Shown piece by piece: positions 2,858 through 44,444 of a DNA stretch of 64,000 nucleotides. The translations under genes and the position numbers were made by a program. The notes under the pieces were generated by a model. It was given only the letters and a program-made list of their open reading frames with translations, had not been told where the DNA came from and did not search any database. Origin of the DNA: a virus; the IMG/VR virus record IMGVR_UViG_3300030103_004875; one strand, 5' to 3'. Numbering within the stretch: the stretch's first letter is position 1; every line of letters begins with the position of its first letter.

Positions 2858-3292
2858 ATGAACTTAAGTGATTATCAAAATTATGCAAAAAATGATCTTA
2901 TACTCGATGAAACTCAACTAGACACAGAATCTTTAAAAACACCTCAACTCCATTCAAAATACTTAAATTTTTTGATGGATGAAAAACTTAGATTAACTAA
3001 ACTTCAACATGAGTATAAGGTGATTCGAAGAAAGAAGTGGCTGTACTATACAGGTAAAATGTCTCAGGAAGAACTAGAAGAAGAGGACTGGGAACCATTC
3101 GAACTTACAATACTGAAAACGGATTTGGATAAATTTTTAGATTCCGACGAGGATCTACAATTAATTGACATGCGTATGAAATATAAAGAAACTATTGTTG
3201 ATTATCTAAACGAAATCATAAAAGTAATTAACAATAGACAGTGGAACATACGTTCTGCCATAGACTGGCTGAAATTTACGAATGGACAATGA
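2858..3292 (+). CDS. uvsY: Recombination mediator UvsY
   Basis: ESLKTPQLHSKYL, KWLYYTGK, NRQWNIRSAIDWLKF. Confidence 0.93.
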   Translation: MNLSDYQNYAKNDLILDETQLDTESLKTPQLHSKYLNFLMDEKLRLTKLQHEYKVIRRKKWLYYTGKMSQEELEEEDWEPFELTILKTDLDKFLDSDEDLQLIDMRMKYKETIVDYLNEIIKVINNRQWNIRSAIDWLKFTNGQ

Positions 3293-4803
3293 TGAGTGAT
3301 CTGATCATACGACAAATAGATGCCGTACATCTAAAAATAGAAAGTGAAAAATCAATAGCAAAAGAACTCAGTGATTTTTTCACATTCTATGTTCCGAATT
3401 ATCAGTACACCCCAGCATTTAAGAATAAATATTGGGATGGTCAGATAAGACTATTCAATTTATTCAATCGCACAATATATGTCGGACTTAAAGATTACAT
3501 TCAAAAATTCTGTGATGATAGAAATTACTCATACACATTCACAGAAGAAAAAGAAATGGCTCAATGTGATGATGCAGAGGACTTCATAAACACACTGAGT
3601 CTAACTGCCAATGGTAAACCCATAAAGATTCATGATCACCAAAAAAAGGCTTTTCTTGATTCTCTGGTAAAGAAAAGAACTTTACTCATATCTCCCACGG
3701 GTTCAGGTAAGTCTCTAATAATTTATTGCCTAGTTCGCTATCTTCTTAGATGTACAGAGGGTAAAATTTTAGTAGTTGTCCCCACAACTAATCTTGTAAA
3801 TCAAATGAGGTCCGATTTCGAAGACTACGGGTCAAATGACTCGTTCAATATTTCAGACGAAATCCATACCATATTTTCTGGACAGGAAAAACAAACAGAC
3901 AGAAGAGTGGTAATTTCAACGTGGCAGAGTTTATATACACTTCCAGAATCATACTTTGATCAATTCGAATCTGTGTTTGGAGATGAGTGTCATTTATTCA
4001 AAGCCAAATCATTGTCTGGGCTGATGGAAAAGATGAAGAACGCATACTACCGATTTGGCACAACGGGAACATTAGATGACTCAAAAACACACAAGTTGGT
4101 AATCGAAGGACTATTTGGTCCTGCGGTCAAAGTGACATCAACCACAGAGTTGATGAAAAAGAAAATTCTATCTAAACTAAAAATTCACTGCCTTACCCTG
4201 AAACACAATGAAGAATCTTGTAATGAAATGAAGAGAAAGAAGTATCAGGAAGAGATAGATTGGTTGGTTCAGAATAAGGACAGAAACCAGTTTATAGTAG
4301 ATTTGGCAAAAAAGTTAAACGGAAATACTTTGATACTTTTCAATTTTGTCAATAAGCATGGCATTCCTCTGAATGAATTAATGGAAACTCAGATCACAGA
4401 CAGACCCATATACATGATTCATGGTAAAACTGACGTAGATGAAAGAGAGATGATTCGTAAGGTTGTTGATAAAAATAAGACATCCATTTTACTGGCATCA
4501 TATGGTACATGTTCCACGGGAATCAATATTCGCAATATTCACAACATTATCTTTGCTTCACCGTCCAAATCCGTAATTCGAGTCCTCCAATCGATTGGAA
4601 GAGGTTTAAGGACTTCTGAGGGTAAAAATAAAGCAATTGTCTATGACATATCAGATAATTTATCGTATAAAAAGTACACAAACCATACGATGAATCATCT
4701 GGAGGAGAGAATCAAAATATATACTAATGAGAAGTTTGATTATGATATTTCTAACATCCGCTTAGGAGGACCTCTCGATGAAAACAACGTACAGAGTCAT
4801 TAA
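3289..4803 (+). CDS. uvsW: RNA-DNA/DNA-DNA helicase UvsW (SF2)
   Basis: WDGQIRLF, SPTGSGKS, DECH, TTGT, QSIGRGLR; ATG at 3289/3292 overlaps the uvsY stop. Confidence 0.96.
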   Translation: MMSDLIIRQIDAVHLKIESEKSIAKELSDFFTFYVPNYQYTPAFKNKYWDGQIRLFNLFNRTIYVGLKDYIQKFCDDRNYSYTFTEEKEMAQCDDAEDFINTLSLTANGKPIKIHDHQKKAFLDSLVKKRTLLISPTGSGKSLIIYCLVRYLLRCTEGKILVVVPTTNLVNQMRSDFEDYGSNDSFNISDEIHTIFSGQEKQTDRRVVISTWQSLYTLPESYFDQFESVFGDECHLFKAKSLSGLMEKMKNAYYRFGTTGTLDDSKTHKLVIEGLFGPAVKVTSTTELMKKKILSKLKIHCLTLKHNEESCNEMKRKKYQEEIDWLVQNKDRNQFIVDLAKKLNGNTLILFNFVNKHGIPLNELMETQITDRPIYMIHGKTDVDEREMIRKVVDKNKTSILLASYGTCSTGINIRNIHNIIFASPSKSVIRVLQSIGRGLRTSEGKNKAIVYDISDNLSYKKYTNHTMNHLEERIKIYTNEKFDYDISNIRLGGPLDENNVQSH

Positions 4804-6144: not shown

Positions 6145-7214
6145 AAATCGCTTTAATTAACGACACTCATTTCGGTGCCAGAAATGATTCTCCAGTATTT
6201 TTGGATCATTTTATATCTTTCTTTGAGGACAAGTTCTTTCCGTATTGTGAAGAACATAACATAGACACTGTAATACATCTGGGCGATTTCTTCGACAGAA
6301 GAAAGTTTATAAATTTCAATACTCTTAACAAGACTAGATCCCAGATCATAGATGTTTTCGATGAGAAGAAAATTAATCTTCATATACTGCTGGGTAATCA
6401 CGATACTTATTATAAAAATACCAATAAAATAAACTCACTCACAGAAATCATTGGTAACAAGTATGATAATATAAAAATTTATAATGAACCCGAAGTTTTA
6501 GAAATGGACGGGTTGTGTATAGGTATTGTTCCTTGGATAAACGCAGAAAACCACGACGAATCAATTGAGTTTTTGAATAATTGTAAGTGTCCAATTATCA
6601 TGGGGCATTTTGAATTAAATGGTTATGAAGTAATGAAAGGCGTTAAGTTTGATGGAGGAATGTCAGATGCTCCATTAAAAAGATTCGAAATGGTTTTGTC
6701 TGGGCATTTTCATGGTAAAAGTTCTAAAAATAATGTAGTATATCTTGGAACTCAGTATGAAATAACTTTTGGTGATATTCACGAACAGAGGGGGTTTCAT
6801 ATATTAGACACCTCGACCCGAGAACTAAAATTTGTTCCAAATACAGATAGGATGTTCTATACGTTAGAGTACAATGACACTGATCAAGAAAATACGGAAT
6901 CTCTTATAAATAGTATAGACGAATCTTTTCGGGATAAGTATGTAAAAATAGTTGTAGTGAATAGAGATAAGCATCATTTATTTGACTCATTGATTGAAAA
7001 ATTGTATGAAGTAAACGTATCTGATGTTTCGGTGATAGAAGATTATAGAGAAATTTTTAATGATGAAGAAGACGTAGATTTAGCACAAGATACATTAACC
7101 ATTATAAACTCTGAATTGGAGAGTTTGGATGTGGATGATGTTGATTTGGATGCACTTAAAAAAATTATGAGAACCTTGTATATGGAGAGTTTATCAGATG
7201 ACAGACACAGTTGA
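6141..7214 (+). CDS. gp47: Recombination endonuclease subunit gp47 (Mre11/SbcD-like)
   Basis: DTHFG, HLGDFFDRRK, GNHD, GHFE, SGHFH metallophosphoesterase motifs. Confidence 0.97.
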   Translation: MKIALINDTHFGARNDSPVFLDHFISFFEDKFFPYCEEHNIDTVIHLGDFFDRRKFINFNTLNKTRSQIIDVFDEKKINLHILLGNHDTYYKNTNKINSLTEIIGNKYDNIKIYNEPEVLEMDGLCIGIVPWINAENHDESIEFLNNCKCPIIMGHFELNGYEVMKGVKFDGGMSDAPLKRFEMVLSGHFHGKSSKNNVVYLGTQYEITFGDIHEQRGFHILDTSTRELKFVPNTDRMFYTLEYNDTDQENTESLINSIDESFRDKYVKIVVVNRDKHHLFDSLIEKLYEVNVSDVSVIEDYREIFNDEEDVDLAQDTLTIINSELESLDVDDVDLDALKKIMRTLYMESLSDDRHS

Positions 7215-7929
7215 AAAGACAGAAGAAAATATTACAGAGCCGGTAAAGCCTGTAAAGCCTGTACAGGAAGTTTTTGACCCTCGTGAATGGGCAAGGAAAA
7301 CTTCTGGGGCGTATCGATATGATACAATGGTAGATAATACACATATGACTCATGTAAACAGACCAAAGGTTATTCCAGTGAAAGAATCGTTTGAATGTAA
7401 TTCTCAATATATTAATAATATTGATGGTACTTTCGATGTAAAGGCAACTAAAGATATTAACGGTGGTGGACTTATTGAAGAATGTCACTATTGGATCTTA
7501 GAGTCTAGACTTAATGATTTTATCAAGGGCACAAAGGACAAAATTGGTGTTCGTTTACTATGGACTGTTCCTTGTGATGAAAACACTCACGGCTGTGAAG
7601 AGTTTGGACCTCACATAATCATTCCTCGCGGTAATGCAATGTCATATCGTCCGGCCGAATCCCCGAACGCTTACTTCGAATTTGATGAAGTAACCAGAAC
7701 CATTCGTTTCTTTGCCCTCCGACCTATTGCAGAGGGAGAAAGTATTACAATTCCTGTGCCTTCACCAGAAGCAATTGGACCTTCTGGGATTTCGGCAGAA
7801 GAATTCCAGAATATATCTGGTCTTGTTTTGTCCACTCCCGGTGCTGCTAAACCAGGCGGTTGTGGTAGTTGTGCGAAGAAGGCAGAGGAAAGAAAGCAGT
7901 TCCGTGATAGGAGTAAGGAAACTTCGTGA
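7198..7929 (+). CDS. SET-domain-like protein with degenerate NHS motif
   Basis: VKATKDINGGGLIEEC and SYRPAESPNA..FFALRPIAEGESITI match SET motifs; C-terminal GGCGSC. Confidence 0.65.
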   Translation: MTDTVEKTEENITEPVKPVKPVQEVFDPREWARKTSGAYRYDTMVDNTHMTHVNRPKVIPVKESFECNSQYINNIDGTFDVKATKDINGGGLIEECHYWILESRLNDFIKGTKDKIGVRLLWTVPCDENTHGCEEFGPHIIIPRGNAMSYRPAESPNAYFEFDEVTRTIRFFALRPIAEGESITIPVPSPEAIGPSGISAEEFQNISGLVLSTPGAAKPGGCGSCAKKAEERKQFRDRSKETS

Positions 7930-7948: not shown

Positions 7949-9673
7949 ATGATAAATTTTACAAAACTACGTTTCAAAAATTTTGGTTCATTTGGAAATA
8001 GTTTTACTGAAATAGACTTTACCGAAAAGGGCTTGATTCTGGTAACAGGATTAAATGGTCATGGGAAATCGTTTGCATATCTCGATGCCCTGACCTTTGC
8101 CCTTTTCGGTAAACCTTTTCGTAAAATTAACATGCCTCAGCTTGTTAATAGTATAAATTTAAAGAATTGTTTAGTAGAAGTTTATTTTACGATCGGTAAT
8201 ACTGAATACAAAATTGTTCGGGGATTGTCCCCCAAAGTCTTTGAAATTTTCAAGGACGGGGAAATGTTGGATCAGGATGCGAAGTCTAAAGACTACCAGA
8301 ATATTATAGAAGAACAAATATTAAAAATGAACTACAAGACGTTCACTCAAGTTGTTATTCTTGGTAGGTCTTCATTTATTCCTTTCATGCAGTTATCCCC
8401 AACAGATCGCCGGGTAGTCATTGAAAACATATTGGATATAAATATATTTTCTACGATGAATAGTATTGCAAAAGCAAAACTGTCTATAATTAAGGATTAT
8501 ATAAATGACATTCTCAGTAAAATTGAGGCCGCAAAAGAAAAAATCTCTTTCCAAGAGAAGTACATCCAAAAAATTGAAAGTCAAAGCAAAGAATCCACGA
8601 CTAAACTTGAAGACCAAATTAAAGATAGTTTGATTCTAATTGAGAAATGTTCTAATGAAATAAAATCATTAGAGACAAATCATGTAGCATCAGATGATAT
8701 CAGAAAAAAATCATTAGCAATAAGGTCAGAGATATCAAAGATGTCATCTCTTCGTGATCAAATTGTCAATAATATACAGTCAAATCAAAAAGATATTGAT
8801 TTTTATGAAGACAATGATTCATGTCCGGTTTGTAAACAAAGTATAGAGGAAATGTTCAGGTCTTCTAAACTTGAAACTTCAAACTTGAAGAAGGGTGAGT
8901 TGGAGGATGGCTTGGTTCTTTTGAAGGAGAAACTTTCTGAAAAGGAACTTCTTATAAAGGATATTGAAATACAGTATAAATCTTCTTTAGATATTGAAAA
9001 GAAAATAGCATCCAACAAGAGTCTATTAGAATCATCAGAAGATCAAGTCAAAAAACTTCAGAAACAAATCGATTCATTTGATCCTAATGAAGAAGAACTT
9101 CGTGAAGAAATTAAAACAAAAAATATGTTGGAGGGTCAAATTGAGTCTCTCGATGAACAATTGGAACAGAGAAAAAAAGAACAATTAAATTATAAAATTT
9201 GTGTTTCTCTTCTCAAGGATAGTGGAATTAAATCTAAAATCATAAAGCACTATCTTCCAGTGGTGAATAAAGTCATCAATAAGTTTCTTAAGAGTATGAA
9301 TTTCTTTACCCAATTCGAATTGGACGAAGAATTTAACGAGATAATTAAGAGCCGTTTTCGTGATAAGTTTAGTTACATGAGTTTCAGTGAGGGTGAAAAA
9401 CTTAGAATTGATCTTGCCTTACTGTTTGCTTGGAGAGAAGTAGCAAAACTAAAGAATAGTGCAAACTGCAATCTTCTGATACTTGATGAAATTTTTGATT
9501 CTTCACTGGACTCTATGGGAACGGAAGAACTCATGAAGACTCTTCATGGAGTTGGATTGGATGGTACTGTCTGTATTATTAGTCATAGAATGGATTCGAT
9601 GGTTGATAAATTTACAAAGGCATATCAAGTAAAGAAGATAAAGAATTTCTCTAAGTTGGTTCCGGTTAAGTGA
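7949..9673 (+). CDS. gp46: Recombination ATPase subunit gp46 (Rad50/SbcC-like)
   Basis: GLNGHGKS, CPVC zinc hook, FSEGEKLRIDLAL, LILDEIFDSSLD. Confidence 0.97.
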   Translation: MINFTKLRFKNFGSFGNSFTEIDFTEKGLILVTGLNGHGKSFAYLDALTFALFGKPFRKINMPQLVNSINLKNCLVEVYFTIGNTEYKIVRGLSPKVFEIFKDGEMLDQDAKSKDYQNIIEEQILKMNYKTFTQVVILGRSSFIPFMQLSPTDRRVVIENILDINIFSTMNSIAKAKLSIIKDYINDILSKIEAAKEKISFQEKYIQKIESQSKESTTKLEDQIKDSLILIEKCSNEIKSLETNHVASDDIRKKSLAIRSEISKMSSLRDQIVNNIQSNQKDIDFYEDNDSCPVCKQSIEEMFRSSKLETSNLKKGELEDGLVLLKEKLSEKELLIKDIEIQYKSSLDIEKKIASNKSLLESSEDQVKKLQKQIDSFDPNEEELREEIKTKNMLEGQIESLDEQLEQRKKEQLNYKICVSLLKDSGIKSKIIKHYLPVVNKVINKFLKSMNFFTQFELDEEFNEIIKSRFRDKFSYMSFSEGEKLRIDLALLFAWREVAKLKNSANCNLLILDEIFDSSLDSMGTEELMKTLHGVGLDGTVCIISHRMDSMVDKFTKAYQVKKIKNFSKLVPVK

Positions 9674-10437
9674 GTTTATTTGAAATGACATCAGATGACT
9701 ACCTCTCTCTTATTGGAGATTGGGAAGATCCAAATCCAGAACCCGTCGTAGAGGAGCACGACGGGTTTCTGGTTGTTCGTGATGATCTTCTGGGTGGAGG
9801 CTCCAAGATAAGATTTGCGGATTATTTAATTCGTGCTGATGATAATATAAAGGAGTGGGTATACGGAAGTTCACCTGCAACTGGATATGCTCAAATATCA
9901 TTGGGTCACTTATGTGAGAAATATGATAAGTCGGCAGTTGTTTTTATGGCAGATCGTGCTGTAGAAAAAAGGCATCCATATCAAATTGAAGCCATAAATA
10001 CGGGGGTTGATATGCGATGGGTTCCGAATGGAATGCTATCTGTAACAGAAAAGAGAGCAAGAGATTATGTCCAAGAAGATCCAAAAACTCGTAGACTTTT
10101 GCCTATCGGATTTGATGATGATACTGTTCTATCTAGCATCATTCGTGTGGCTCGCAATCAACCTTTTACTCCAAATGAAGTCTGGACTGTCGGATCATCA
10201 GGAACACTCACGCGGGGACTACAACTCGCGTGGCCAAATGCCTCCTTTCACTGCGTCTGTGTGGGACATAGTGGCGACTATGGACGAGCAAAAACGTATA
10301 GATGCGAAATACCATTCAACAAAGAAACAAAAGTAAAGCCTCCATTTCCATCTGCACCTACATATGATGCAAAGGCTTGGGAATTTATGCTAAATTATGC
10401 ATCTCCAGGCGCACTTTTTTGGAACGTCGGAGCATGA
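9670..10437 (+). CDS. PLP-dependent enzyme, fold type II (TrpB/ACC deaminase/cysteine desulfhydrase-like)
   Basis: VVRDDLLGGGSKIR (PLP lysine), GYAQISL, TVGSSGTL phosphate loop, PTYDAKAW, LFWNVG. Confidence 0.8.
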   Translation: MSLFEMTSDDYLSLIGDWEDPNPEPVVEEHDGFLVVRDDLLGGGSKIRFADYLIRADDNIKEWVYGSSPATGYAQISLGHLCEKYDKSAVVFMADRAVEKRHPYQIEAINTGVDMRWVPNGMLSVTEKRARDYVQEDPKTRRLLPIGFDDDTVLSSIIRVARNQPFTPNEVWTVGSSGTLTRGLQLAWPNASFHCVCVGHSGDYGRAKTYRCEIPFNKETKVKPPFPSAPTYDAKAWEFMLNYASPGALFWNVGA

Positions 10438-10438
10438 T

Positions 10439-12370
10439 ATGGTATTTATTTGCGATCCTACAGATCCTCCTTCAATAGTATCTTCTGAATTTTTAGTGAA
10501 TGGATCAGTGGGAACACCCGACGAAACGGGTGCTGGAGGAGCATTAAATCCTCCTGTATCAGAATCTACCGTTGAAGCCGTTGTAGTGACCTCCGGTGAG
10601 GTTCAGTCTATATCATATGAATATTTTTTAGATGGGGTTTCTGAATATAGTGGAAACCCATATTCTATAGTTGAGGGAGATGGGATTCCGGGAAAGGTAC
10701 TAACCTGTATAGTTACTGCGTCCAATGTTGCAGGTTCGGTTAGTACAACCATTGAAATGGGGGTAGTTTATGGTACTATTCCAGAAATACCAACGGATAT
10801 TACTACCTTTGCTGATATTGCACCCCCTATTGGGGGAATTGTTAATCCCGGTGATCTAGTTGGAGTAGTATATAATTCACTATTAACTTCTTCCGGTGAT
10901 CCAGATGTTAACTCGATTGAAACCATAATTAATGGAAATGTATACACCGGATCCTCAGTTTTACATGTGGTTGGTTCTGATGAATCAGGTTCTAACTGTA
11001 AAATTGTTTTAAATAGTATAAGTGTTAGTAACGAAAATCCCAACATTCCCGGCACAAGTGACGGATTTATCACTAGAACTTTTGATCAGGAACTTGCGGG
11101 TGTTCAGGATCCTGTGGCCGGTAATCCATGTGGTGCTGCTTTGGGTTCCTGTTGTGTAACTGGTGGGTTTGATCCTAATACTGGAATAACCCTTGGATCC
11201 TGTACACAGGAAACAGAAGCAGATTGTTTAGCACTAACACCTCAAGGTAAATGGACTGCCAACACACCGTGTCCGTTATGCGGTGATGGAAATGTGGGAA
11301 CTCCATGTTGTGATGAAATTGGAACTGGTAGGTGCTGTTGCATTCAAACTGATAACACTGGATTGTGTATTCCTGATGTGACTGCCGAAGAGTGTGTTAC
11401 CACGGATCCTAGATTTGCAAATTGTGGATCCACCGACAGTCTTGGTCAGATAACTTGGACGTATGGGGAGGAATGTCCAGAATGTGTTGTGGGGACACCA
11501 AATCCCCCCTGCTGCGCTCCATTAACTGGTAGGTGCTGTGAGGTAGTTTTGGAGAATGAAAATGGGAGACCCGTTGGTGCTTATTGTGAATCTGGTCTAG
11601 AATCATTTGACTGTCCTCAATTTCAGGAAAGTGATCCTACTAATTTCCAATGGACTCCAGATGGAACTTGTGTTGATTGTTCAGATCCAACCTTAAATTC
11701 AGGCCTTCCTTGTTGCGATCCTCTAGGACGCTGTTGTTTAAGAAGTGGCGACTTACGAGATATTACTTACGATATAACTGAGGCAAATTGTGAGCAAAAG
11801 AAGATTGATGAAGGATGGGAAAATAAAGAATGGACCCAAAATAATCCAAATCAATCATCTGCTGATTCCGGTCTTGAACTAGATTGCAGTGATCCAGATA
11901 CCGCTTCGGCAAATCCAAATTGCTGTGCTCCTCTTGGTAGGTGTTGTTGGAAAGTTTCTGATGCTACTGGTCAGTTCTCTGAGGGTAATTGTGTAGAAGC
12001 GATTACTGAATTTGAATGTTTACAGCAAATTCCTACAGCCTCTATTCCGTTTTCTGCGTGGACTCCGGGTGGTAATCTTGCCTGTCCCGGCGATCGCTTT
12101 GGTGCTGGTTGTCCCGGAGACAATGATACCAATGATTATTGCTGTGATACTAGTAAGGGGAGATGTTGTGCAGAAAATGGTGGTGTGAATAGTTGTGAAG
12201 ATAATGTATGGTATGATGATTGTCAACAATCTAACCAGACGTTCGGAAACGGGTTAGTGTGTCCGGACTGTGAAACAGAAAATGATCCGGACTGTTGTAA
12301 TGCAAATGTTGTCATAGGAGATTTTACTTTTGATTCGGATCCTCCAAAAGTTGGAGACACTGACGATTGA
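10439..12370 (+). CDS. Cys-rich repeat / Ig-like modular protein, 5' part
   Basis: ATG 10439 with GGAG upstream; Ig-like segment (ISYEY..LTCIVTASN) then G[SR]CC..C..C..W..C..C..CC repeats. Confidence 0.8.
   Translation: MVFICDPTDPPSIVSSEFLVNGSVGTPDETGAGGALNPPVSESTVEAVVVTSGEVQSISYEYFLDGVSEYSGNPYSIVEGDGIPGKVLTCIVTASNVAGSVSTTIEMGVVYGTIPEIPTDITTFADIAPPIGGIVNPGDLVGVVYNSLLTSSGDPDVNSIETIINGNVYTGSSVLHVVGSDESGSNCKIVLNSISVSNENPNIPGTSDGFITRTFDQELAGVQDPVAGNPCGAALGSCCVTGGFDPNTGITLGSCTQETEADCLALTPQGKWTANTPCPLCGDGNVGTPCCDEIGTGRCCCIQTDNTGLCIPDVTAEECVTTDPRFANCGSTDSLGQITWTYGEECPECVVGTPNPPCCAPLTGRCCEVVLENENGRPVGAYCESGLESFDCPQFQESDPTNFQWTPDGTCVDCSDPTLNSGLPCCDPLGRCCLRSGDLRDITYDITEANCEQKKIDEGWENKEWTQNNPNQSSADSGLELDCSDPDTASANPNCCAPLGRCCWKVSDATGQFSEGNCVEAITEFECLQQIPTASIPFSAWTPGGNLACPGDRFGAGCPGDNDTNDYCCDTSKGRCCAENGGVNSCEDNVWYDDCQQSNQTFGNGLVCPDCETENDPDCCNANVVIGDFTFDSDPPKVGDTDD
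11711..11946 (+). repeat. Copy 1 of ~235 bp internal duplication in the Cys-rich gene
   Basis: Similar to 13588-13826; 58-nt identical core 11819-11876 = 13698-13755. Confidence 0.9.
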
Positions 12371-15300
12371 TGTTGATGTTAACAATAATGCCACCCAGCC
12401 TTTATATAAGTTTGAAGTTGATGGTGAATTACGTCAGGACACTTTATCCAATGAGTATCAGATTCCTTACTTTACGGCCGGCTCTCTTTCCGATGCAGGA
12501 AAAGAACTGAAATGTACGGTTTCTGCTGATGATGCTGACGGAGAGACATCTACCGCTTTCGCTTCGAGGTTTATTGATGGCGAGTCTTTTGGTATGCCGG
12601 ACGATATACCTGCTACAATCATAGTCATTCCGGGTGCGATGTGGGATAACGGCTCCGGTTCATTGAATCCAGGCGATCTTGTTGGACTCTCGATAAGCAA
12701 ACCAGAAGTAGATCCTGAGATTTCTATTGCATGGGAATTTCAACAATTGAATGAAGATGTACTTGCCTCTGGGGCCGGGACGCCGGCGATTTATACAATA
12801 CCCAACGAGGCTATAGACGGGTGTGAATTGTGGGTTAATTTGACATTTAGTAATTTTACCGAGAATGCTCCTTCTACCGTAACACTATCTAAACGCTACA
12901 AGATAGGTGATGTATTCAATCCGACTCCTAATGAAAACTGTGGTACGGTTAGAGGTGCTTGCTGTAGACCTGATCCTGATAACGACATTCCAGCAGAGGG
13001 AATCGTAGGAAATAAATGTGACCAGCAAACTCCTTTGGAATGTGCAAATCTCGGAGGATATTATCAAGGGGATGCTTCATCGTGTCCTACTTCGTGCGGA
13101 GATAATCCTGATGGGTGTGATCCAAATAATCCAACTTTCGAAACTTGTTGTTGTCCACAGATAAAAACAGGAAAGTGTTGTTGTACAAAAACAAATAACA
13201 TGGGCAATTGTGTAGATGACTTAACTTATGCTGAGTGTAATAGAGTTAATCCTGACTTTGGTATTTGTGCCCAATCCTATGATGAAGTTTCTGCTCCAGA
13301 AGGAAGTCTAACTGGTGAGCCTTTATGGACTCTTGGTGGAGAATGTGATCCCGGTTGTTTCTCTGCCGTGGATCCAGTTACAGGAGAAATTGAGGATAGA
13401 TGTTGTGATGTGCAGACTGGTCGTTGTTGTTATATTGATTCTGCTGGAGATCGAGTATGTGAAATTAACTTCACCTTGGAGGATTGTATTGCTGCCCGTG
13501 ATTCTGGAGCGAGTCCTGAAGTTGGAGAATTTTTAAACGCTGGTACTTGTCCAAATTGTGAAGTCCCAGAGGAAAACGGCGACGACTGTTGTGATCCTTT
13601 AGGACGATGTTGTTTGAGAAGCAGTGGAGATTTAAGAGACATTACTTATGATATAACTGAGGCAGATTGTGAGCAAAGGAGGATTGATGAAGGATATGAA
13701 AATAAAGAATGGACCCAAAATAATCCAAATCAATCATCTGCTGATTCCGGTCTTGTGTTGACTTGTAGTGATCCAGATACCGCTTCGAACAATCCAAATT
13801 GCTGCCCTACTCTTGGTAGATGCTGCTTTAAAACTGCTAATGCTGAAGACAATGAAACTGTAGGTTTCCGTTTGGGTTTCTGTGAAGAGAATGTGACTAG
13901 TGACGATTGTGACACTCTTGCATCCCTTAATGATGCGTTAGAAGGAACTAAAACTTTTACAATTGGAGAATCATGCCCAAATTGTGGAAGTGGGGATAAC
14001 AGTGAGAGTTGCTGCGATGATAAAGAGCCTGCATTTGGTAGGTGTTGCGACAATGGTATTTGTATTCCTAATCAATTCGAAACAGACTGCCCCGATCATC
14101 ATGATGCTTCCTCTCCGACTTGTCCTGACTGCACTGATCCGAATGAAAATCCCGCAGATGATCCATCTGATTGTTGTCCCTTTGGTGTTCCTGTATTATC
14201 AATAGATTCTTTCACTGTCGATGGTAATCTATATGATCCTTCTACAAATCCTATTGGGATTGGATCAGTAGTCACGGTTTCTACAACTGAAAAGAATGTG
14301 AAAAATGTTTCTTATCGTTTTTACCTAACAGATCCACTCTCTGATTTTACATACGATTTTTCTGGTGGAGATACAAAAACACTTACAGTACCAGTGACAA
14401 CTGAGAGTCTCCCCGCAAGCGCCTTGCCTGGATTTGAACTGAATTTTGAAGTTACCGCTGATTCTGAGTTATTGGATGACAAGGATCAACCAGTAGAGTC
14501 GTTATCTGATAATATTAATTTTCACGCTACGAATGATTATATTCACGGAATTCCTCCTGTTTTTCCGGATGACATAAACACTCTTTATCCGGACTTTAAA
14601 TTCTTTCCTTCCGGTCCCGCTATCGATCCACCGATTGTTTTAAATTATGGAGATCTCTTTTTGTATCCGGGTAATTTGAAGGATCCCCTTCCGCAACTAG
14701 GACAACCACGTGCCACTGATAGTTACAAATGGACGGACAAAGACGGTAATATCATATCAGACGACAATTTCTATACAATTTCATCTGATGGAGTGATTGA
14801 AAATTGTGGTATTGGATTGCAAGTAACTCTTAAAAATGATACATCGGGTGGGTATACCATTCCCGGTGGAGCAGAAATTACCAAAATTTATAATATAGGA
14901 TCCATTCAGGGACCGGATGATACATTCTGTGGTACTGCCGTAGGAAGGTGTTGTGTTCAGGGTGGTTTCCTTCCAATAGGAATATTGAGTGACGGTCAGC
15001 CGTGGGGAGTAACGTATAGCGACTGTAGTATACAGGATGAGGAAACCTGTATTACCACTCTCGGTGGAGAATGGAATGATGATATTAATGATTGTAGTGT
15101 TTGTTCATCTGCTCCGGACGATCATAATGACACCGATATGGGTCTTGCTCCTTGCTGTGATGAGATCCCCGGAAAATGTTGTGTGGATGGCGTATGTGAT
15201 GACTTTGTTCTTTTCGCTAATTGCACGGGAACTTGGACGAGTTATTATGACGATGCGAATGTTTGTGATGATGCTTGTCCTAATGCCGGACCAGTCTGTG

Positions 15301-16733
15301 GGTGTGTGGAGACAGGTGCTTGTTGTTGTGGTCCTACCGATTTAAATGGCTCGTGTCATAATGATATCGCTCCGGAAGATTGTGCTCCGGGGCCCGGTTC
15401 CCCGTGTTCCCCTCAATCATTTCCACAGTTCCAAGGAATTGGTACATCATGTCCGAGCCAGAATCAGTGCGATAACGGTAGTGTTCCCTCTGATATAAAC
15501 GAAGCAAAATGTTGTCCTGCACCACCAGAACCAAAAGATTCGTACTGTGGTAGATCTAACTCAGGATTTGGTTCCGCTAGTTGTTGGGATATAGCATCAA
15601 ATCCTTTAAGTAATCCACGGATGTGCAATGGTGTCAGTAAACTTAATGGGGGAGCATTGGACTATACAAGTCCATGTGATTATAGAGAAATACGTACAGA
15701 TGCTTCGGGATTCGTCGTAGATGAACCTGAGTACTGTGATGTTAATTGTATATGTTCATGTTTCAAAGAAAACGATAATCCGGGTTGTGGAGGAGATTTG
15801 CATAGTTTCGGAACATCAACTAATCATCCTCAAGGTGAATCTCTTAATCTGGCTGCTCTATGTGAACAGGCAGTTTGTAATGTGAGGCCCTCGTGTTGTG
15901 TAGAGCAGCCGGAATGTCCCCTTGGTCAAGACTGTACTCCTCGATGGGACTCCCAATGCGTTTCTATTGCCGAGAGTCTTTGCACAATTAGTAATTTGGT
16001 TGGTTCTATCTCCTCGGATGCCGCCGAGGAAATGTCCACTGTTCTCCGAAAGGAATATCCCTCTTGTCCGCAAATTGGCCAGGCGACTCCGTGTATAGAC
16101 GAGACTAATGAGAACTGGTTAGATTGGTCTAGTTGTAAAAGTAAATTAGGTGTCCCGGAAGGTAGCGGTGAGTTATGTGGTGAAATTGAGTGTCCTTTAG
16201 GTAAAGTTTGCAGTGAAATAACCGAGCAGTGTGTCAATTGGAGTTGTCCTAATGTCCCATGTAAAGATCTATTCCCGAGTGTTTGTGAGTCGGGTTTCTA
16301 TGATCAGGGCGATTTATTCGGTGGTGAAGGATATAGATGGATAACATCAAGCACAGATGGGTGTGCTTTTGATAATTATCCATACGATATCTACACCGGA
16401 GGAGCGTACATCCAACTAGGGCCCGGTTCAGAAACATTTTGGAATGATTTCAATACGAGTGCGTTAAGGATTGCATTTGGTTCCCCGGAGGATGCAGAAA
16501 ATTTCAAAAATAATGGTGGAAAGGTTACACTAGATATTAATGGTATAACGAAAGATTTCTTTGCGGCAAGTGCCACACAGTTGACAGGAGGATCTAGTTT
16601 TATTGTTATATGGAAGTATTTGGCCAGCGCCGATCCAGATGTAAAGACAAGTAGTGCATTCAAAGCCGACGATCTACATGCCATATTAGAAGATATGTCT
16701 GTTGGACGGACAATACGAATAACCATTACCTAA
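12357..16733 (+). CDS. Cys-rich repeat / Ig-like modular protein, 3' part (likely the same gene, out of frame)
   Basis: Same repeat types; no convincing ATG/RBS; continues the motif PKVGD|TLTIDVDV across a frame change at ~12357. Confidence 0.8.
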   Translation, partial: TLTIDVDVNNNATQPLYKFEVDGELRQDTLSNEYQIPYFTAGSLSDAGKELKCTVSADDADGETSTAFASRFIDGESFGMPDDIPATIIVIPGAMWDNGSGSLNPGDLVGLSISKPEVDPEISIAWEFQQLNEDVLASGAGTPAIYTIPNEAIDGCELWVNLTFSNFTENAPSTVTLSKRYKIGDVFNPTPNENCGTVRGACCRPDPDNDIPAEGIVGNKCDQQTPLECANLGGYYQGDASSCPTSCGDNPDGCDPNNPTFETCCCPQIKTGKCCCTKTNNMGNCVDDLTYAECNRVNPDFGICAQSYDEVSAPEGSLTGEPLWTLGGECDPGCFSAVDPVTGEIEDRCCDVQTGRCCYIDSAGDRVCEINFTLEDCIAARDSGASPEVGEFLNAGTCPNCEVPEENGDDCCDPLGRCCLRSSGDLRDITYDITEADCEQRRIDEGYENKEWTQNNPNQSSADSGLVLTCSDPDTASNNPNCCPTLGRCCFKTANAEDNETVGFRLGFCEENVTSDDCDTLASLNDALEGTKTFTIGESCPNCGSGDNSESCCDDKEPAFGRCCDNGICIPNQFETDCPDHHDASSPTCPDCTDPNENPADDPSDCCPFGVPVLSIDSFTVDGNLYDPSTNPIGIGSVVTVSTTEKNVKNVSYRFYLTDPLSDFTYDFSGGDTKTLTVPVTTESLPASALPGFELNFEVTADSELLDDKDQPVESLSDNINFHATNDYIHGIPPVFPDDINTLYPDFKFFPSGPAIDPPIVLNYGDLFLYPGNLKDPLPQLGQPRATDSYKWTDKDGNIISDDNFYTISSDGVIENCGIGLQVTLKNDTSGGYTIPGGAEITKIYNIGSIQGPDDTFCGTAVGRCCVQGGFLPIGILSDGQPWGVTYSDCSIQDEETCITTLGGEWNDDINDCSVCSSAPDDHNDTDMGLAPCCDEIPGKCCVDGVCDDFVLFANCTGTWTSYYDDANVCDDACPNAGPVCGCVETGACCCGPTDLNGSCHNDIAPEDCAPGPGSPCSPQSFPQFQGIGTSCPSQNQCDNGSVPSDINEAKCCPAPPEPKDSYCGRSNSGFGSASCWDIASNPLSNPRMCNGVSKLNGGALDYTSPCDYREIRTDASGFVVDEPEYCDVNCICSCFKENDNPGCGGDLHSFGTSTNHPQGESLNLAALCEQAVCNVRPSCCVEQPECPLGQDCTPRWDSQCVSIAESLCTISNLVGSISSDAAEEMSTVLRKEYPSCPQIGQATPCIDETNENWLDWSSCKSKLGVPEGSGELCGEIECPLGKVCSEITEQCVNWSCPNVPCKDLFPSVCESGFYDQGDLFGGEGYRWITSSTDGCAFDNYPYDIYTGGAYIQLGPGSETFWNDFNTSALRIAFGSPEDAENFKNNGGKVTLDINGITKDFFAASATQLTGGSSFIVIWKYLASADPDVKTSSAFKADDLHAILEDMSVGRTIRITIT
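13588..13826 (+). repeat. Copy 2 of ~235 bp internal duplication in the Cys-rich gene
   Basis: Encodes CCDPLGRCCLRS..DLRDITYDITEA.CEQ..IDEG.ENKEWTQNNPNQSSADSGL..CSDPDTAS.NPNCC, as does copy 1. Confidence 0.9.
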
Positions 16734-16739: not shown

Positions 16740-16767
16740 TTGACATATTTTTTATGTGTGATATAAT
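16740..16767 (+). promoter_or_regulatory. Sigma70-type promoter (TTGACA-16-TATAAT), probably leaderless
   Basis: Perfect hexamers at 16740-16745 and 16762-16767; ATG at 16774 with no SD. Confidence 0.8.
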
Positions 16768-16773: not shown

Positions 16774-18360
16774 ATGACTGTCCCGTACCAACGAAATGAT
16801 TATGTAATTAATCACGAGGTGAATGTCTGTTTCGAGGATCTACTCGAAATGACACCCGATGAGTTTCGAGTGTGGGTTGGCAAAATGCGAGATGTACTGA
16901 GGCACTCTTGGGACACCTATGACTGCCCTCCTCGAACTGGCAAACCAGAGTCCAAGATTATTGAAAACTGGAACAAACTAGAAACCTATCCAGTTCATGA
17001 ATTTGAACACGATGACGAATTGAGTGACACGCCGAAAGATGTGATTATCAATAAGTCTCGTGGCGGTTCTGAGGTTGATCAATTCTTTGAGAATATGTTC
17101 AGGACTCGGATTAATTATACCGATAAAGATAATGGGTACTCTATCTACGATTTGATTGCAGATCCCGATAGACTCGATCAGGTGTACAAGGGTTCCCTCA
17201 GACACTTCAGACGGGATTCTTTTTACAACTACGCACTATCTGCTATCAAGAACAGTAAAAAGTATTCAGTCGTATCTGTGGACTCTGGTGAAGAATGGAT
17301 TCGTGTGTTTTTCGAACAGCCCTCTCTATTCGGAGATCACGACTTTATATTGGAGCAGGTGAAACTTCGTGACGGACTCAATTCTGGTTACTTTCAACTG
17401 GAACAATCAGAAATTCTACAACTGACAAAGGATCAAGTTCAGAAATTTAAGGATTGTGGTTGGTTACAGTATCGTCATCATTCTACATTCGATATCGAGA
17501 ATATGCCCGATGATCGTGTGTATTCTATTCGCCTCTACACAAAGGGAAAGAAACTGTTCCCTGCTTGCTTTAAGGCTTTTAGAATTGGATATATTCAACC
17601 AGCAGTTAATTTTCCTCCCATGACGGCTAAATACTTATATGAAAGATTTACTGAACACATCTCCGACAAAACAGATTTGCGAATCTATGATCCGAGTTCT
17701 GGTTGGGGTGGCCGTATCCTTGGCGCTATGTCTGTCCGTGACGATCGCCATATTCGTTACATTGGCACTGATCCCAATCCTGATAATTTCTTTGATGATG
17801 GGACTTCTAAATACTCTATGGTTGCGGATTTTTACAACACCAAAACCACAAGATCCAATTCTTTCTTCTCCGACACAAATGAATACGAAGTATATCAACT
17901 AGGATCAGAAGAGGTTCGTAATGATCCTGATTTCCAGAGACATAGAGGAAAGGTGGATCTAATATTCACCTCTCCGCCATACTTCAATAGAGAAGCGTAT
18001 AGCGAAGATGAGAACCAGTCATACAAGAAGTATGGTTCTACTTATGAATCGTGGAGAGACGGGTTCCTGCGTCCTACGCTGGAGACCTGTGCGGAGTGGT
18101 TGAGGCCGGGAAGATACCTGCTATGGAACATAGCAGACATTCTGGTAAAGGGAGATTATCTTCCACTAGAAGAGGATTCACAAAAAATCCTCGAAGAAAT
18201 GGGCTTGGAGTATAAATATAAATTGAAAATGGCATTAGAAGGAATGCCCGGACAAAATAGAGTAGGGGAAGATGGAAAGCCTCTTTGTAAGAATTATTGT
18301 AAAGTGAATGGAAAACATTTAAAATATGAACCAGTTTATGTTTTTTGGAAACCACAATGA
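16774..18360 (+). CDS. DNA amino-methyltransferase (SPPY, probably N4-cytosine) with long N-terminal extension
   Basis: YDPSSGWGGR (motif I) precedes DLIFTSPPYF (motif IV); LRPGRYLLWNIAD. Confidence 0.85.
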   Translation: MTVPYQRNDYVINHEVNVCFEDLLEMTPDEFRVWVGKMRDVLRHSWDTYDCPPRTGKPESKIIENWNKLETYPVHEFEHDDELSDTPKDVIINKSRGGSEVDQFFENMFRTRINYTDKDNGYSIYDLIADPDRLDQVYKGSLRHFRRDSFYNYALSAIKNSKKYSVVSVDSGEEWIRVFFEQPSLFGDHDFILEQVKLRDGLNSGYFQLEQSEILQLTKDQVQKFKDCGWLQYRHHSTFDIENMPDDRVYSIRLYTKGKKLFPACFKAFRIGYIQPAVNFPPMTAKYLYERFTEHISDKTDLRIYDPSSGWGGRILGAMSVRDDRHIRYIGTDPNPDNFFDDGTSKYSMVADFYNTKTTRSNSFFSDTNEYEVYQLGSEEVRNDPDFQRHRGKVDLIFTSPPYFNREAYSEDENQSYKKYGSTYESWRDGFLRPTLETCAEWLRPGRYLLWNIADILVKGDYLPLEEDSQKILEEMGLEYKYKLKMALEGMPGQNRVGEDGKPLCKNYCKVNGKHLKYEPVYVFWKPQ

Positions 18361-40818: not shown

Positions 40819-42222
40819 ATGTCTCAGTTTGTTCTTCAATCTAAAATTGATAATAAGTTTTCTAAAAACGATCTTTTCATAAAAGCACCTAACAATGTGG
40901 GTGTTGATGAAGTTGTAAATTTTGGAGATGGTATTTCTAGTATTGTTCTTGAAACCGAGGACAAAACTTCAGTTATCAAATTTATAGGATCTCATAAAAC
41001 CATTAATGAGTATTTTAGAGAAATAGAGGAAACTGAAAGGGATCAGTATATACTCAAGGAAACTTTAAACTCCTCTCTACAAAGAGGGGATGTTTTATTT
41101 TCCACCGATAATTCCCCCAACGTGGAAATTAGAATCAGTCCCGGTATACACAGTTTGGATGTAGAAAGCACAGATGGAAATGTTTATCGTTTCAGTGGCA
41201 GTAAAAATAACATAGATGAACTTTTTAGATACTTTCCTACCGAAGTTGTGGAAGAGGAGGAGCAAGTTTTATTGGGTGAACAAGGCCCTCCTGGCCCACA
41301 GGGTCCTAGAGGGAAAGAAGGTTCTGTTGGACCTCGTGGGCCTAAAGGAGAAAAGGGCTCTCCCGGACTTCCGGGTACAGATGGTTCAATAGGACCAAAG
41401 GGCGAGCAGGGTGAGCAGGGCCCTGTGGGAGAAAGGGGACCACAAGGTGATCAGGGTCCTGTGGGAGATCCAGGTCCCTCTGGTAAACCGGGTGTTGACG
41501 GTAAAGACGGAGAGGTTGGACCTAAAGGAATACAAGGAAACGCTGGAGAAATTGGACCTAAGGGTGATCCCGGCGAAAAGGGGGATCAGGGAGAAATCGG
41601 TCAGGTGGGCCCTCAAGGTTTAATTGGACCTAAGGGTGATCCCGGCGAAAAGGGTAAACAGGGATCCAAAGGATCTAAAGGTTCGAAGGGCGATAAAGGT
41701 GATAGGGGTGATCCGGGAACTGATGGTAAGGAGGGCCCAAGAGGACAACGTGGGTTAGATGGTAAGCAAGGACCAAAAGGTGATAAGGGTGATTCCGGGA
41801 TTGTATCTGCGAAGTATCCTCTTGTATATGATACTAATGGTAATGAGATAAGTTTTGATACAAAAAAACTAGAGGAACTTTTAGGTAAATTTAGTAATTT
41901 AGGTCCGGGACAAAATGGTCCTGATTATGCTGCTATGACAGATTGGCTTGCTGCTGCCGGTGGTGCTGTTGCAATAATAGACGGTAACAATAACAATGCC
42001 AAAGTAACAAATTCTTTGGGGGATTTTGTAATAGAGGGTAGTGGAGTTTCCCTAAATAAGTTAGGTAAGACAGTAACCATGACCATTTCTGGGGGTGGCG
42101 GGGCAACTACCGTGGTTAGTGATAATGCTCCCGATGGAATTTATGTTACCGGGGATAAATGGATTGAGTCTGATACGGGAACACTTTTTACTAGATATCA
42201 AGCCTTTTGGGTAGAATTTTGA
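40819..42222 (+). CDS. Collagen-like fibre protein
   Basis: About 58 uninterrupted Gly-X-Y triplets (41275-41796); C-terminal [16 protein letters not shown]...WVEF motif. Confidence 0.92.
41550..41654 (+). repeat. 33-bp direct repeat within the collagen region
   Basis: aattggacctaagggtgatcccggcgaaaaggg at 41550-41582 and 41622-41654. Confidence 0.9.
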
Positions 42223-42233
42223 GGTCAAACTAA

Positions 42234-44444
42234 ATGTCGAATTTTCCAACCAATCCATCAACGGGAGCCACTCACGCAATAGGAGACAAAACGTGGGAGT
42301 ATAATGGTTCTGCATGGCAAAAAATATTCAGCGGAGATGGTATACGAGCGATAGGAATCTCTGGTGGTGATGTTACGATTGGAAGAAGCGGATTAAATTT
42401 TGATTCTGACACTGTTGGCTTGACTCTATCTCTCCATTCTTCGGGAAACACTGCATCTTTGATAATAAAAGGAGACGCTTTAGCTTCCACATCCGGAAGA
42501 GCGGAGTACACATATACCGTTGTGTCTGGTGTGATAAATCCCCCAAACGCAACATCCAACGGTCAATTTGTATACAATGATGATACTGGTCAAATATCTA
42601 TTTTTAAGTTTGACAACGACGGTGGAGATTTTAGAACTCAATTATCACAAGCGGCCGCCGGAGGAGTGGAGGGAGTTAGTTCTAAAATTAATGTGGTTGT
42701 AGGGAATGATAATAGAACAAAAGTCTTCGAGATTGACAGTCAACAGGTAACTTACGATGGAACTAAGTTTAATGTTGGGAGTTCCTTCCTACAGGGAAAT
42801 ACTGCTGGAACTGGTAAAAAGGTTACTGTATTTATTGATCAGGGAGAACAATTCCTTAGAGCAAAGGAATATAGATTCCCTGACGGAACTTCTGCCTCTT
42901 CTATAGTTACTTCATTCAATGGTGAAACGGGTGATGTCACCACCACTAGCACGGTTCTTCCTGTTGCTGGAATCACTGCGACATCTGGTATCACTATAGG
43001 TGGTGACATCCATGCTCCAAATGAGTTTCATATTCGTAACGCGAGCGGTGAGACAGTCATTGATGTTGCTAATAGAAATGTAAGCATAGGAGATGTTGAC
43101 TCTGGGGGCAATGATACGGACATAAACATTCGTGATTCTCATAATGCAATTTATCTAAACGCAGGATCTCAGATCAGACTCAATGCTCCAGATGTTTACA
43201 TTGAACAGGGGGGTCATTTAGGTGCATTGGGCGATACGGATACTCATATAAATTTTGCTGGGAGTGATGAATTATTTTTAGTGGCAGGTGGAAACACGCT
43301 CATGCAAGCAACCACCAACAATATAATTATTGGCGGTGTGACATTTGGTGTCACTGGTGGGGGAGCAACATTCGGCGGAATAATACACGCACAGGGCTTA
43401 ACACTAGGACCCGGCGGAGTTACATTCCCTGATGGTACTAATATGAAAACTGCTGCTGCTGGTGGTGGCGGAATAGAAGAACTTAACGGATCTACCGCTG
43501 CTGGAATAACTCTTGCTCAGGGCTTTAGATATAAAGTATCGGCAGTTGCTGCATCACCAAGTTCACCAAGTGCGGGTGAAATCGCAATTAAAGACCTTCT
43601 TGGTGCGGGATTGCTCCCCAGTGGTTTCATACTTCACAAAAATCCTTTTAACTCTGCTATAGATCTAAGTGATACTGATAGTAATGGAAGTTATTTTAAA
43701 ATGTTTGCCGATGCTGGTGGTATCGCAACAATAATAAATGAAAAAACCGGAAAGTCCGCCCAGTTTATTAACACCTCATCTTTTACTTCGAGTAGTAATG
43801 TTTTAGAGTATACTGGTAATGCAAATTCAAATGATGCTACGAGCGCCCTCGCGTCCGTTGGTGATTTCGTTATCGTTAAATTGGATTTTTATACCGATAC
43901 TGGAGTAACATCTATTGGTGGAGATTCCTTCCAAAATAAGGGAGCTTTGGCTTTAGGTAAGGGTATAACTACGGAAAACGCTGGTAGTGGAACGGGCAGA
44001 CTCAGACTTGAACAGGAAACTATAGGATTTATTCTTGATGGTGCCGGATCTCCTCTTGGGACAGGAGACAAATTGGACGCTCTTCGTCAAATTCCATATA
44101 ATATGGAGATTGATTCGACCTCTGCTTTCATTCCTGCCGGAGTTGCCGGGGTTGATAAAACGATTACATTTTCCATCAAGAAAACTTCTACTCTTAATAG
44201 TGTAACTAGTTCTGGAGGTATAACAGGATCTAAGTTAACTTTAGGAAACACTGCGTCTGCCGATCAGACAGGATTTACCTTTGATGGTATTGTTGGCGGT
44301 GTTCTCTTTAGAGAACTGGGTAGTGCCTCATCAAATGTTGGTGCAACTGTGGATAAAAATGAGTGGATATTCCCAGAAATAACTGGTAACTCTGGTGACA
44401 TAAATAAATTACAGATATTCATGAAATTAAAACCACAGGACTAG
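42234..44444 (+). CDS. Tail fibre / virion fibre protein
   Basis: N-term NFPTNPSTGATHAIGDKTWEYNGSAW; G/T/S-rich; FPDGT and VTSFNGETGDV fibre motifs. Confidence 0.8.
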   Translation: MSNFPTNPSTGATHAIGDKTWEYNGSAWQKIFSGDGIRAIGISGGDVTIGRSGLNFDSDTVGLTLSLHSSGNTASLIIKGDALASTSGRAEYTYTVVSGVINPPNATSNGQFVYNDDTGQISIFKFDNDGGDFRTQLSQAAAGGVEGVSSKINVVVGNDNRTKVFEIDSQQVTYDGTKFNVGSSFLQGNTAGTGKKVTVFIDQGEQFLRAKEYRFPDGTSASSIVTSFNGETGDVTTTSTVLPVAGITATSGITIGGDIHAPNEFHIRNASGETVIDVANRNVSIGDVDSGGNDTDINIRDSHNAIYLNAGSQIRLNAPDVYIEQGGHLGALGDTDTHINFAGSDELFLVAGGNTLMQATTNNIIIGGVTFGVTGGGATFGGIIHAQGLTLGPGGVTFPDGTNMKTAAAGGGGIEELNGSTAAGITLAQGFRYKVSAVAASPSSPSAGEIAIKDLLGAGLLPSGFILHKNPFNSAIDLSDTDSNGSYFKMFADAGGIATIINEKTGKSAQFINTSSFTSSSNVLEYTGNANSNDATSALASVGDFVIVKLDFYTDTGVTSIGGDSFQNKGALALGKGITTENAGSGTGRLRLEQETIGFILDGAGSPLGTGDKLDALRQIPYNMEIDSTSAFIPAGVAGVDKTITFSIKKTSTLNSVTSSGGITGSKLTLGNTASADQTGFTFDGIVGGVLFRELGSASSNVGATVDKNEWIFPEITGNSGDINKLQIFMKLKPQD

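Follow-up and report, generated by a model that had tools for sequence, protein, structure and literature searches.

Among the described systems closest to the gene analysed here is Hoc of phage T4, a non-essential string of variable immunoglobulin-like (Ig-like) domains set on a capsid-binding domain (PMC10385173). Disulfide links have been shown in the tail fibres and baseplate of cyanophage Pam3, a precedent for cytoplasmic assembly of virion fibres whose disulfides are functional and sensitive to reduction (PMC9942802), and long, very acidic Ig-like chains that act away from a surface are found in the bacterial adhesins MpIBP (the Marinomonas ice-binding adhesin) and GhpA (the Aureispira grappling-hook protein). 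Here we describe a gene at positions 10439–16733 of a 64,000-nucleotide (nt) stretch of DNA (IMG/VR record IMGVR_UViG_3300030103_004875, the whole of which we refer to as the window), a piece of the genome of an uncultured marine T4-like myovirus. The gene encodes a giant protein in which Ig-like domains alternate with clusters of a cysteine-rich repeat, designated GxCC. Coordinates are those of the window, and the features located in and around the gene are all on the + strand.

The giant protein resembles Hoc in its plan, a non-essential, variable Ig-domain string on a T4-type phage following the logic set out for Hoc in PMC10385173, and one of its Ig-like pairs is linked by Foldseek to Hoc proteins of Acinetobacter phages and a T5-like decoration protein. 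It differs from Hoc in being 5–6-fold larger, in having 15 cysteine-rich mini-domains that Hoc lacks, in its genome position, and in having neither a sequence match to any Hoc PHROG nor a recognisable capsid-binding domain (the predicted local distance difference test score, pLDDT, of its C-terminal model is below 50). The Pam3 fibre is a trimer with few inter-subunit cysteines, whereas there are 161 cysteines in intramolecular repeat modules here, and the two have no sequence relation. MpIBP and GhpA are secreted bacterial proteins that are stiffened by Ca2+ and lack cysteine-rich modules. With phage tail-fibre and receptor-binding proteins the giant protein shares a hypervariable allele in conserved flanks and a variable C-terminus, although it has no sequence or fold match to a fibre shaft or tip or to a trimerisation module and its matches to tail proteins are of the generic Ig fold only; it matches no tail PHROG, in a search that gave 39 such matches for the collagen-like fibre gene at 40819–42222.

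Because it combines six Ig-like domains, a cysteine-framed repeat of extracellular type, extreme acidity, accessory status and hypervariability confined to the gene, in which the Ig domains and C-terminus evolve fast, the evidence indicates that the protein is exposed to the outside and involved in recognition. In a lytic T4-like phage the simplest candidate for such a protein is a virion-surface fibre or decoration, and we regard it as modestly probable that the giant protein is a dispensable, disulfide-stiffened component of this kind, functionally like T4 Hoc.

Results

Architecture and fold of the giant protein

In the window the gene is spread over two overlapping frames, which the first-pass annotation of this DNA had put at ~2,100 aa if joined into one giant protein. 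The joined product exists: a search of 5.8 billion proteins recovered it from a sister contig as an uninterrupted protein of 2,098 amino acids (aa) with 100% identity (P0001), and the lesion that splits the window's own copy is described below. P0001 (222 kDa) contains 161 cysteines (7.7%) and has a net charge of -235 and an isoelectric point of 4.05, fully in keeping with its first description as acidic and cysteine-rich, and the giant gene is the sole cysteine-rich open reading frame (ORF) among the 52 in the window (7.4–8.1% Cys, compared with no more than 3.8%). Neither a signal peptide nor a membrane segment was found in P0001, in which the maximum Kyte-Doolittle value over a 19-residue window is 1.4, as expected from the earlier reading that no signal peptide is visible; its homologues likewise have no hydrophobic N-terminus or anchor.

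The triplicated architecture that had been proposed is borne out by internal paralogy. There are three macro-units, each with two Ig-like beta-sandwiches that are followed by six, six and three cysteine repeats respectively, and a unique C-terminus comes last. Unit 1 is 35% identical to unit 2 over 663 aa (expectation value, E, 1e-97) and 25% identical to unit 3 over 498 aa (E 3e-21), and the signatures NPGDLVG, NPGDLVG and NYGDLFL are all found in the translation. The Ig-like pair of macro-unit 1 (10466–11113; residues ~10–110 and 120–225, from AlphaFold2 and Foldseek) precedes cysteine-repeat cluster 1 (11129–12298), with six GxCC repeats of 53–75 aa in alignment A2. The Ig-like pair of macro-unit 2 (12299–12938), which has the frame break in its first strand and is recognised by its paralogy to unit 1 and its NPGDLVG motif, is followed by the six GxCC repeats of cluster 2 (12939–14177). 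Macro-unit 3 has its Ig-like pair at 14178–14927 (beta strands, AlphaFold2 pLDDT 60–85), which is the best-conserved part of the protein among distant homologues as judged by windowed identity, and the three GxCC repeats of cluster 3 at 14928–15515. The unique C-terminal region is cysteine-rich from 15516 to 16358, with family-conserved motifs near TSPCDYREI, ICSC and LCEQ-VC (invariant columns of alignment A1), and ends in a cysteine-free domain of ~120 aa with the stop codon (16359–16733).

Structure prediction by module was informative for the Ig-like pair of unit 1 and gave low confidence for the repeats and the C-terminus. With an alignment of 12 sequences, AlphaFold2 folds the two cysteine-poor segments of unit 1 into beta-sandwiches with pLDDT of ~90 and ~80. 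Foldseek comparison of this pair with the PDB returned tandem Ig modules, namely those of titin, PECAM-1, Robo and LdtMt2, and also the long adhesins MpIBP and GhpA, all with E of 1e-4 to 1e-3; comparison with viral models returned phage Ig-like proteins with E of 6e-7 to 1e-4, which include Hoc of Acinetobacter phages, tail proteins, a virion structural protein of a cyanophage and the T5-like decoration protein. The cysteine repeats are mostly modelled at low confidence (pLDDT 35–60), with repeat 4 reaching 73–82 as a hairpin-helix-strand. The C-terminus is variable or missing among homologues and has no ESM Atlas match. Only the closest homologues have its cysteine-free domain, which varies more between close relatives than any other part and has no relatives that we found outside the family, and word-indexed searches for shorter proteins with either the C-terminal domain or the N-terminal Ig-like pair returned only a fragment from the same family.

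The GxCC repeat and its bacterial relatives

The fifteen repeats, of 50–87 aa, align to the pattern CC-x4-GRCC-x9-C-x7-C-x13-W-x5-CPxC-x8-CC, with about eight nearly invariant cysteines in each and a last cysteine pair of varying spacing (CxxC, CxxxC or longer). Pfam and NCBIfam have no model for the repeat, and a PDB sequence search with the repeat profile gave no match. Neither half of the gene has a Pfam, PHROG or NCBIfam family match, tblastn against 50,697 phage records was negative, and so were searches of IMG/VR, whether by the single protein or by the family alignment; the family that shares the giant protein comprises only about nine phage clusters. The repeat region gave only weak leads in the ESM Atlas, to two Uroviricota clusters and one Planctomycetota cluster.

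We built a profile of 64 positions from the 15 window units and scored it against 1.84 billion representatives. It matched eight proteins, five of the same phage family (1,207–2,098 aa) and three of bacterial type. Two of the latter, P0010 and P0011, have IPTL-CTERM anchors, to which P0011 adds a TSP3 repeat and a signal peptide; the third, P0012, combines a signal peptide with a choice-of-anchor J domain and carries no taxon assignment. In hmmsearch domain alignments the phage and bacterial repeats are colinear on every cysteine, on the GxCC anchor and on the tryptophan, and their profile-profile probability (hhalign) is 85–94%. A genome scan seeded from P0010 and P0011 placed all seven of its confirmed loci in Phycisphaerae metagenome-assembled genomes (GC content 0.59–0.65), although its pattern was specific to these two proteins and it had no control phylum, so that seven of seven is no proof of enrichment. 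The Phycisphaerae relatives are large secreted proteins with up to 20 repeats. The first-pass annotation had likened the repeat style to that of secreted Phycisphaerae proteins, and as a resemblance this holds: two of the three non-phage matches of the profile are of a type whose confirmed genome loci, seven of seven, fall in that group.

The relation is nevertheless a distant one. The two sets share the colinear framework C, GxCC, C, x3-[VIT]-x3-C, W, C-x2-4-C, and the bacterial proteins (with P0012) are the sole cellular matches of the phage profile, but the identity is 17–21% and the scores amount to ~40–47 bits per protein over 5–7 repeats. The phage units are 53–87 aa long and begin with CC, compared with ~50 aa for the bacterial units, and the bacterial proteins have a signal peptide and a sorting anchor where the phage protein has neither. 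GC content at third codon positions (GC3) is 0.25–0.29 in the giant gene, equal to the phage background, its higher total GC coming from codon positions 1 and 2, whereas the total GC of the bacterial loci is ~0.6. Since GC3 is native to the phage, a recent capture from a high-GC host is unlikely, and we rejected it. The further suggestion that the protein is host-derived or mimics a host surface protein is thus not upheld, given the remoteness of the similarity, the phage-like GC3 and the lack of anything that links the phage to a planctomycete host.

These data bear on whether the cysteines form disulfides or bind metal. Pfam gave no metal-binding match in the window's own protein, and sub-threshold zinc-finger matches appear only in the homologue P0007 and the bacterial P0011 (E 0.012–0.013, 15.7–16.3 bits). 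GxCC lacks the fixed ligand spacing of metallothionein and zinc-finger repeats, in that the last cysteine pair is variable, and this variable spacing and the secreted relatives would favour disulfides over metal. An intracellular protein, either a giant acidic decoy for a host defence or a cysteine sink that buffers metal or redox state, with its cysteines reduced or metal-bound, is in our judgement unlikely. It would account for synthesis in the cytoplasm, for the CC and CxxC motifs and the net charge of -235, and for an early-type gene neighbourhood, and hypervariability also suits counter-defence genes. However, the repeat has its nearest relatives in secreted, anchor-sorted proteins of bacteria, a variable last pair makes a poor metal site, six Ig-like domains are atypical of intracellular inhibitors, and the repeat regions, with just ~12–15% Cys, a conserved tryptophan and predicted secondary structure, do not resemble metallothioneins.

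Constraint and hypervariability

Conservation within the giant protein is centred on cysteine, which is 95% conserved among six homologues, compared with 40–79% for every other residue. Between the metagenome loci L002 and L003, the ratio of non-synonymous to synonymous substitution rates (dN/dS) is 0.93 in Ig domain 1 and 0.72 in Ig domain 2, values that rest on small counts for the pair (27 non-synonymous and 10 synonymous changes), whereas it is 0.28 in the cysteine repeats and 0.04 in the flanking gp46. The C-terminal 400 aa of P0001 and P0002 are 54–78% identical, compared with ~81–99% elsewhere, and homologues range from 1,252 to 2,169 aa with varying numbers of units.

The variability is confined to the gene. 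Proteins encoded on either side are 88–98% identical to those of L002, whereas the giant proteins are 38–44% identical, and DNA homology to L002 (~85%) stops at 10470, 31 nt inside the gene, and returns at 16733, its last base. Patches of 88.5%-identical DNA are shared with L003 inside the giant gene, and L002 and L003, otherwise 93% identical, differ by a divergent block within it. A 239-nt segment in repeat 4 of cluster 1 (11727–11965) has 84% DNA identity to a partner segment of the same length in repeat 4 of cluster 2 (13606–13844), which points to a probable gene conversion or recent partial duplication.

A cassette between two DNA-modification genes

Four metagenome loci have the common gene order gp47, orf243, gp46, 255-aa gene, giant gene, 528-aa gene, orf235, rnh, gp45, gp44. 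We found 80 IMG/VR loci by way of the 528-aa gene, 71 of which include enough upstream sequence to be informative, and the giant gene is present at this site in none of the 71. In 33 the 255-aa and 528-aa genes abut (0–48 nt), in four a small insert lies between them, and in the other 34 gp46, with or without a small ORF, precedes the 528-aa gene. In three IMG/VR loci (L072, L074 and L076) the slot between the 255-aa and 528-aa homologues holds other cargo of ~1.1 kb, an ORF of 353–379 aa with 2.3–2.7% Cys and no GxCC; because different cargo occupies the same slot, the junction seems to be a recurrent insertion site.

The upstream neighbour (9670–10437) encodes a 255-aa protein with the PHROG label 'threonine dehydratase' and no Pfam or PDB sequence match. 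In Erythrobacter phage ZS04 a counterpart with 41% identity is an internal domain of an 812-aa DNA methyltransferase, in which the PPY motif follows the 255-aa-like domain and aligns to the 528-aa protein of the window, and in Erythrobacter phage R6L and Microcystis phage Mae-JY30 the stretch that matches the 255-aa protein falls within a gene whose annotation is DNA methyltransferase or modification methylase. The 528-aa protein is N6/N4 methyltransferase-like (16774–18360), and in most relatives its gene is next to the 255-aa gene. Given the domain fusion in ZS04 and the abutting genes elsewhere, the giant gene is a cassette that has split a DNA-modification pair. The 255-aa protein has a GGGSK-IR motif which we take to resemble the pyridoxal phosphate (PLP)-lysine motif of ACC deaminase and D-cysteine desulfhydrase enzymes, and by analogy this likeness may hint at DNA hypermodification. 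The possibility that this PLP-like gene supplies cysteine for the giant protein was rejected, as other phages have it as a domain within DNA methyltransferases. The position first given for the gene, inside the replication module between a PLP enzyme and a methyltransferase, is therefore correct as to location, whereas 'PLP enzyme' corresponds only to a PHROG label and the two neighbours constitute one DNA-modification pair.

Variation in the surrounding backbone was also observed. In IMG/VR locus L017 (IMGVR_UViG_3300025168_015645) the 255-aa and 528-aa genes abut, and its 528-aa protein is 95% identical to that of the window, with gp46 at 57% and the 255-aa protein at 74%, a pattern of strong mosaicism in the backbone near this site. 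Likewise, the synonymous divergence (dS) that separates L002 from L003 is 0.69 for gp46 and 0.07 for the 255-aa gene.

Expression signals

The start of the giant gene is closely joined to its upstream neighbour, with a Shine-Dalgarno GGAG at 10429–32, the TGA of the upstream gene at 10435–37 and the ATG at 10439–41 (10429–10441 overall), and L001, L002 and L003 share both the GGAG and this close stop/start junction. The giant gene is thus translationally coupled to the upstream gene, the cassette taking over the coupling at its 5' end. A predicted sigma-70-type promoter (16740–16767; TTGACA, 16 nt, TG-TATAAT, matching the consensus at 12 of 12 positions with an extended -10) sits in the 40-nt spacer ahead of the 528-aa methyltransferase gene, and its TTGAC and TATAnT elements are conserved in all four cassette-bearing loci, among them L001, L002 and L004. 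Loci in which the flanking genes abut have no room for such a promoter, and it looks like a replacement that may restore expression of the gene downstream of the cassette. We also considered T4-type late promoters; TATAAATA and TATACATA occur no more often than by chance, with none just upstream of the gene, and this candidate was rejected.

A non-virion factor is a further reading of a gene with these signals. Such a protein would be released at lysis, become oxidised outside and, for example, coat debris or receptors to spare progeny from adsorbing in vain to dead cells, or attach to particles or gels. An extracellular-type repeat without an export signal, a location outside the structural module with no late promoter, and a gene that is both accessory and hypervariable would all suit such a factor. 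The fold matches, however, are to phage Ig-like proteins of virion type, Ig-like domains in phages being known overwhelmingly from virion proteins, and we know of no precedent for a released phage factor of 222 kDa; we consider this reading quite unlikely.

Frameshift alleles

The split in the window is best explained by a 2-nt deletion within a single gene that extends from 10439 to 16733. The first frame opens with the ATG at 10439 and runs for 643 codons to a premature TGA (10439–12370), which covers macro-unit 1 and the first strand of macro-unit 2 and is 99.8–100% identical to residues 1–641 of intact P0001; the second frame, offset by +1, spans 12330–16733. P0001 reads K-V-G-E-T-L-T-I-D-V through the break point, for which GGnGAG is needed, and because the window has GGAG at ~12353–12357 it lacks 2 nt. 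The frame break (12350–12370) is thus GTTGGAGACA, without the 2 nt of the intact allele, and the premature TGA is at 12368–12370. The intact form (2,098/2,112 aa) is present on at least 12 near-identical contigs of the same 90% cluster, in which the window's split pair (657 + 1,467 aa) is seen once, and the giant gene is also one uninterrupted frame of 1,853–2,053 aa in L001 and L002. The first ATG of the downstream frame is ~87 codons inside that frame, and as a consequence of the deletion the window allele would give only macro-unit 1 (641 native residues), unless the break is an assembly error. A further frameshift allele, independent of the first, lies on an 8,627-bp ENA contig (P0015 and P0021), where 1 nt has been deleted near residue 357; its population is ~98–100% identical in other respects. 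That one near-clonal cluster holds two distinct frameshift alleles is consistent with a gene that is dispensable.

Dispensability raises the question of whether the gene is a functionless, decaying passenger, either a selfish or a relic insertion. The absence of the gene from all 71 informative IMG/VR loci, the two independent frameshift alleles in a cluster of at least 90% identity and the Ig dN/dS of ~0.7–0.9 are what a passenger would show. Even so, we find a passenger very improbable, as open frames of 1,200–2,170 codons are kept in about nine diverged clusters and on many contigs, cysteine conservation and the repeat dN/dS are as given above, and conservation extends to the ribosome-binding site, the upstream coupling and the downstream promoter. 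A programmed +1 frameshift that yields two products on purpose is hardly credible and was rejected, for although the window does have two overlapping frames and programmed frameshifts add Ig domains in some phages, sister contigs with 100% protein identity have one continuous frame, as do L001 and L002, there is no slippery site, and the other split allele is broken elsewhere, so that the break is an individual lesion or an assembly error.

Gene content of the window

The window has a T4-like gene order: gp22, gp23, UvsY, a DNA helicase (3241–4803, named by PHROG label only), gp47, gp46 and the 255-aa gene; then the giant gene, the 528-aa methyltransferase-like gene, RNase H, gp45, gp44, gp62 and RegA; and, in the last part, a long sugar cassette, the collagen-like fibre, gp43, UvsX, a DnaB/gp41-type helicase, ThyX and NrdA. 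Among cultured phages, cyanomyoviruses come closest, with a gp23 that is only ~54% identical. The collagen-like fibre protein (467 aa) and the 736-aa protein next to it (40819–44444) contain no cysteines, and cysteine richness is therefore no general trait of the window's fibre-like proteins. Between gp47 and gp46, a 243-aa ORF (7198–7929) has a sub-threshold SET-domain match (E 7.6e-4) and is 61–72% conserved in L001 and L002. Directly after nrdA, a 340-aa ORF (56108–57130) has the highest GC3 among the window ORFs checked (0.47, with a total GC of 0.49), one cysteine and a net charge of -22; Pfam gives no ribonucleotide-reductase small-subunit match for it and only a weak one to Porin_O_P.

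Discussion

If the giant protein is a virion-surface fibre or decoration, it would be made in the cytoplasm without an export signal and mounted on the virion surface as a long flexible, beads-on-a-string structure, with an extended length that we estimate roughly from typical domain sizes at ~60–70 nm. The Ig-like domains and the variable C-terminal region may make weak, fast-evolving contacts with ligands on cell surfaces or particles, and the GxCC mini-domains may act as rigid spacers in which disulfides form once the particle is in oxic seawater. Such a fibre would be non-essential, modular and hypervariable, and would be swapped between phage backbones by recombination.

Several observations weigh against this interpretation. 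There is no match to a PHROG, Pfam or NCBIfam structural family. The cysteine repeats fold poorly in the AlphaFold2 model, and the C-terminal third has pLDDT below 50 (mean 47 in the model of macro-unit 3 with the C-terminus), with no attachment or receptor-binding domain identified. The gene has early/middle-type replication genes around it, and its translation is coupled to that of a DNA-modification gene, with no T4-type late promoter nearby, the only near-match being CATAAATA, 440 nt upstream and in coding sequence. The first-pass annotation had brought up phage-encoded thiol oxidases; the ORFs scanned in the window include neither a thiol oxidase nor a DsbA or thioredoxin-fold gene. Finally, the frameshifted alleles suggest that the phage manages without the full protein. 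The adhesin- or decoration-like fibre that was first proposed has indirect support from the tandem Ig fold of unit 1 and its matches to Hoc, decoration, tail and virion structural proteins, the hypervariable cassette, the high dN/dS of the Ig domains and the secreted-type repeat.

A bolder extension, which we put forward as a tentative possibility, is that GxCC is an undescribed disulfide-rich module common to surface proteins of Phycisphaerae and to a lineage of marine T4-like phages, and that these phages use it in a redox-matured fibre. The fibre would be reduced and pliable in the cytoplasm and become stiff after lysis into oxic seawater, with the hypervariable Ig and C-terminal parts setting adsorption specificity. 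Phage adhesins would then have a new type of building block, and virion maturation would include a redox step.

Accessory fibres that bear Ig-like domains are already known as a kind; new here are the GxCC module, its scale (15 copies and 161 cysteines), the link to Phycisphaerae and the anatomy of the cassette. As a natural case of cassette insertion the locus is a clean one, in which two coupled genes have been parted and an apparent replacement promoter for the second of them came with the insert, and the GxCC repeat, which also fills large secreted proteins of Phycisphaerae, merits a curated family. Should the proposed role be correct, T4-like phages of the ocean possess a surface fibre that is optional and recombining and is built from a cysteine-rich module described in no database. 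This would show that proteins made in a reducing cytoplasm can depend on dozens of disulfides, and it would provide a handle on how uncultured phages vary their adsorption or particle binding.

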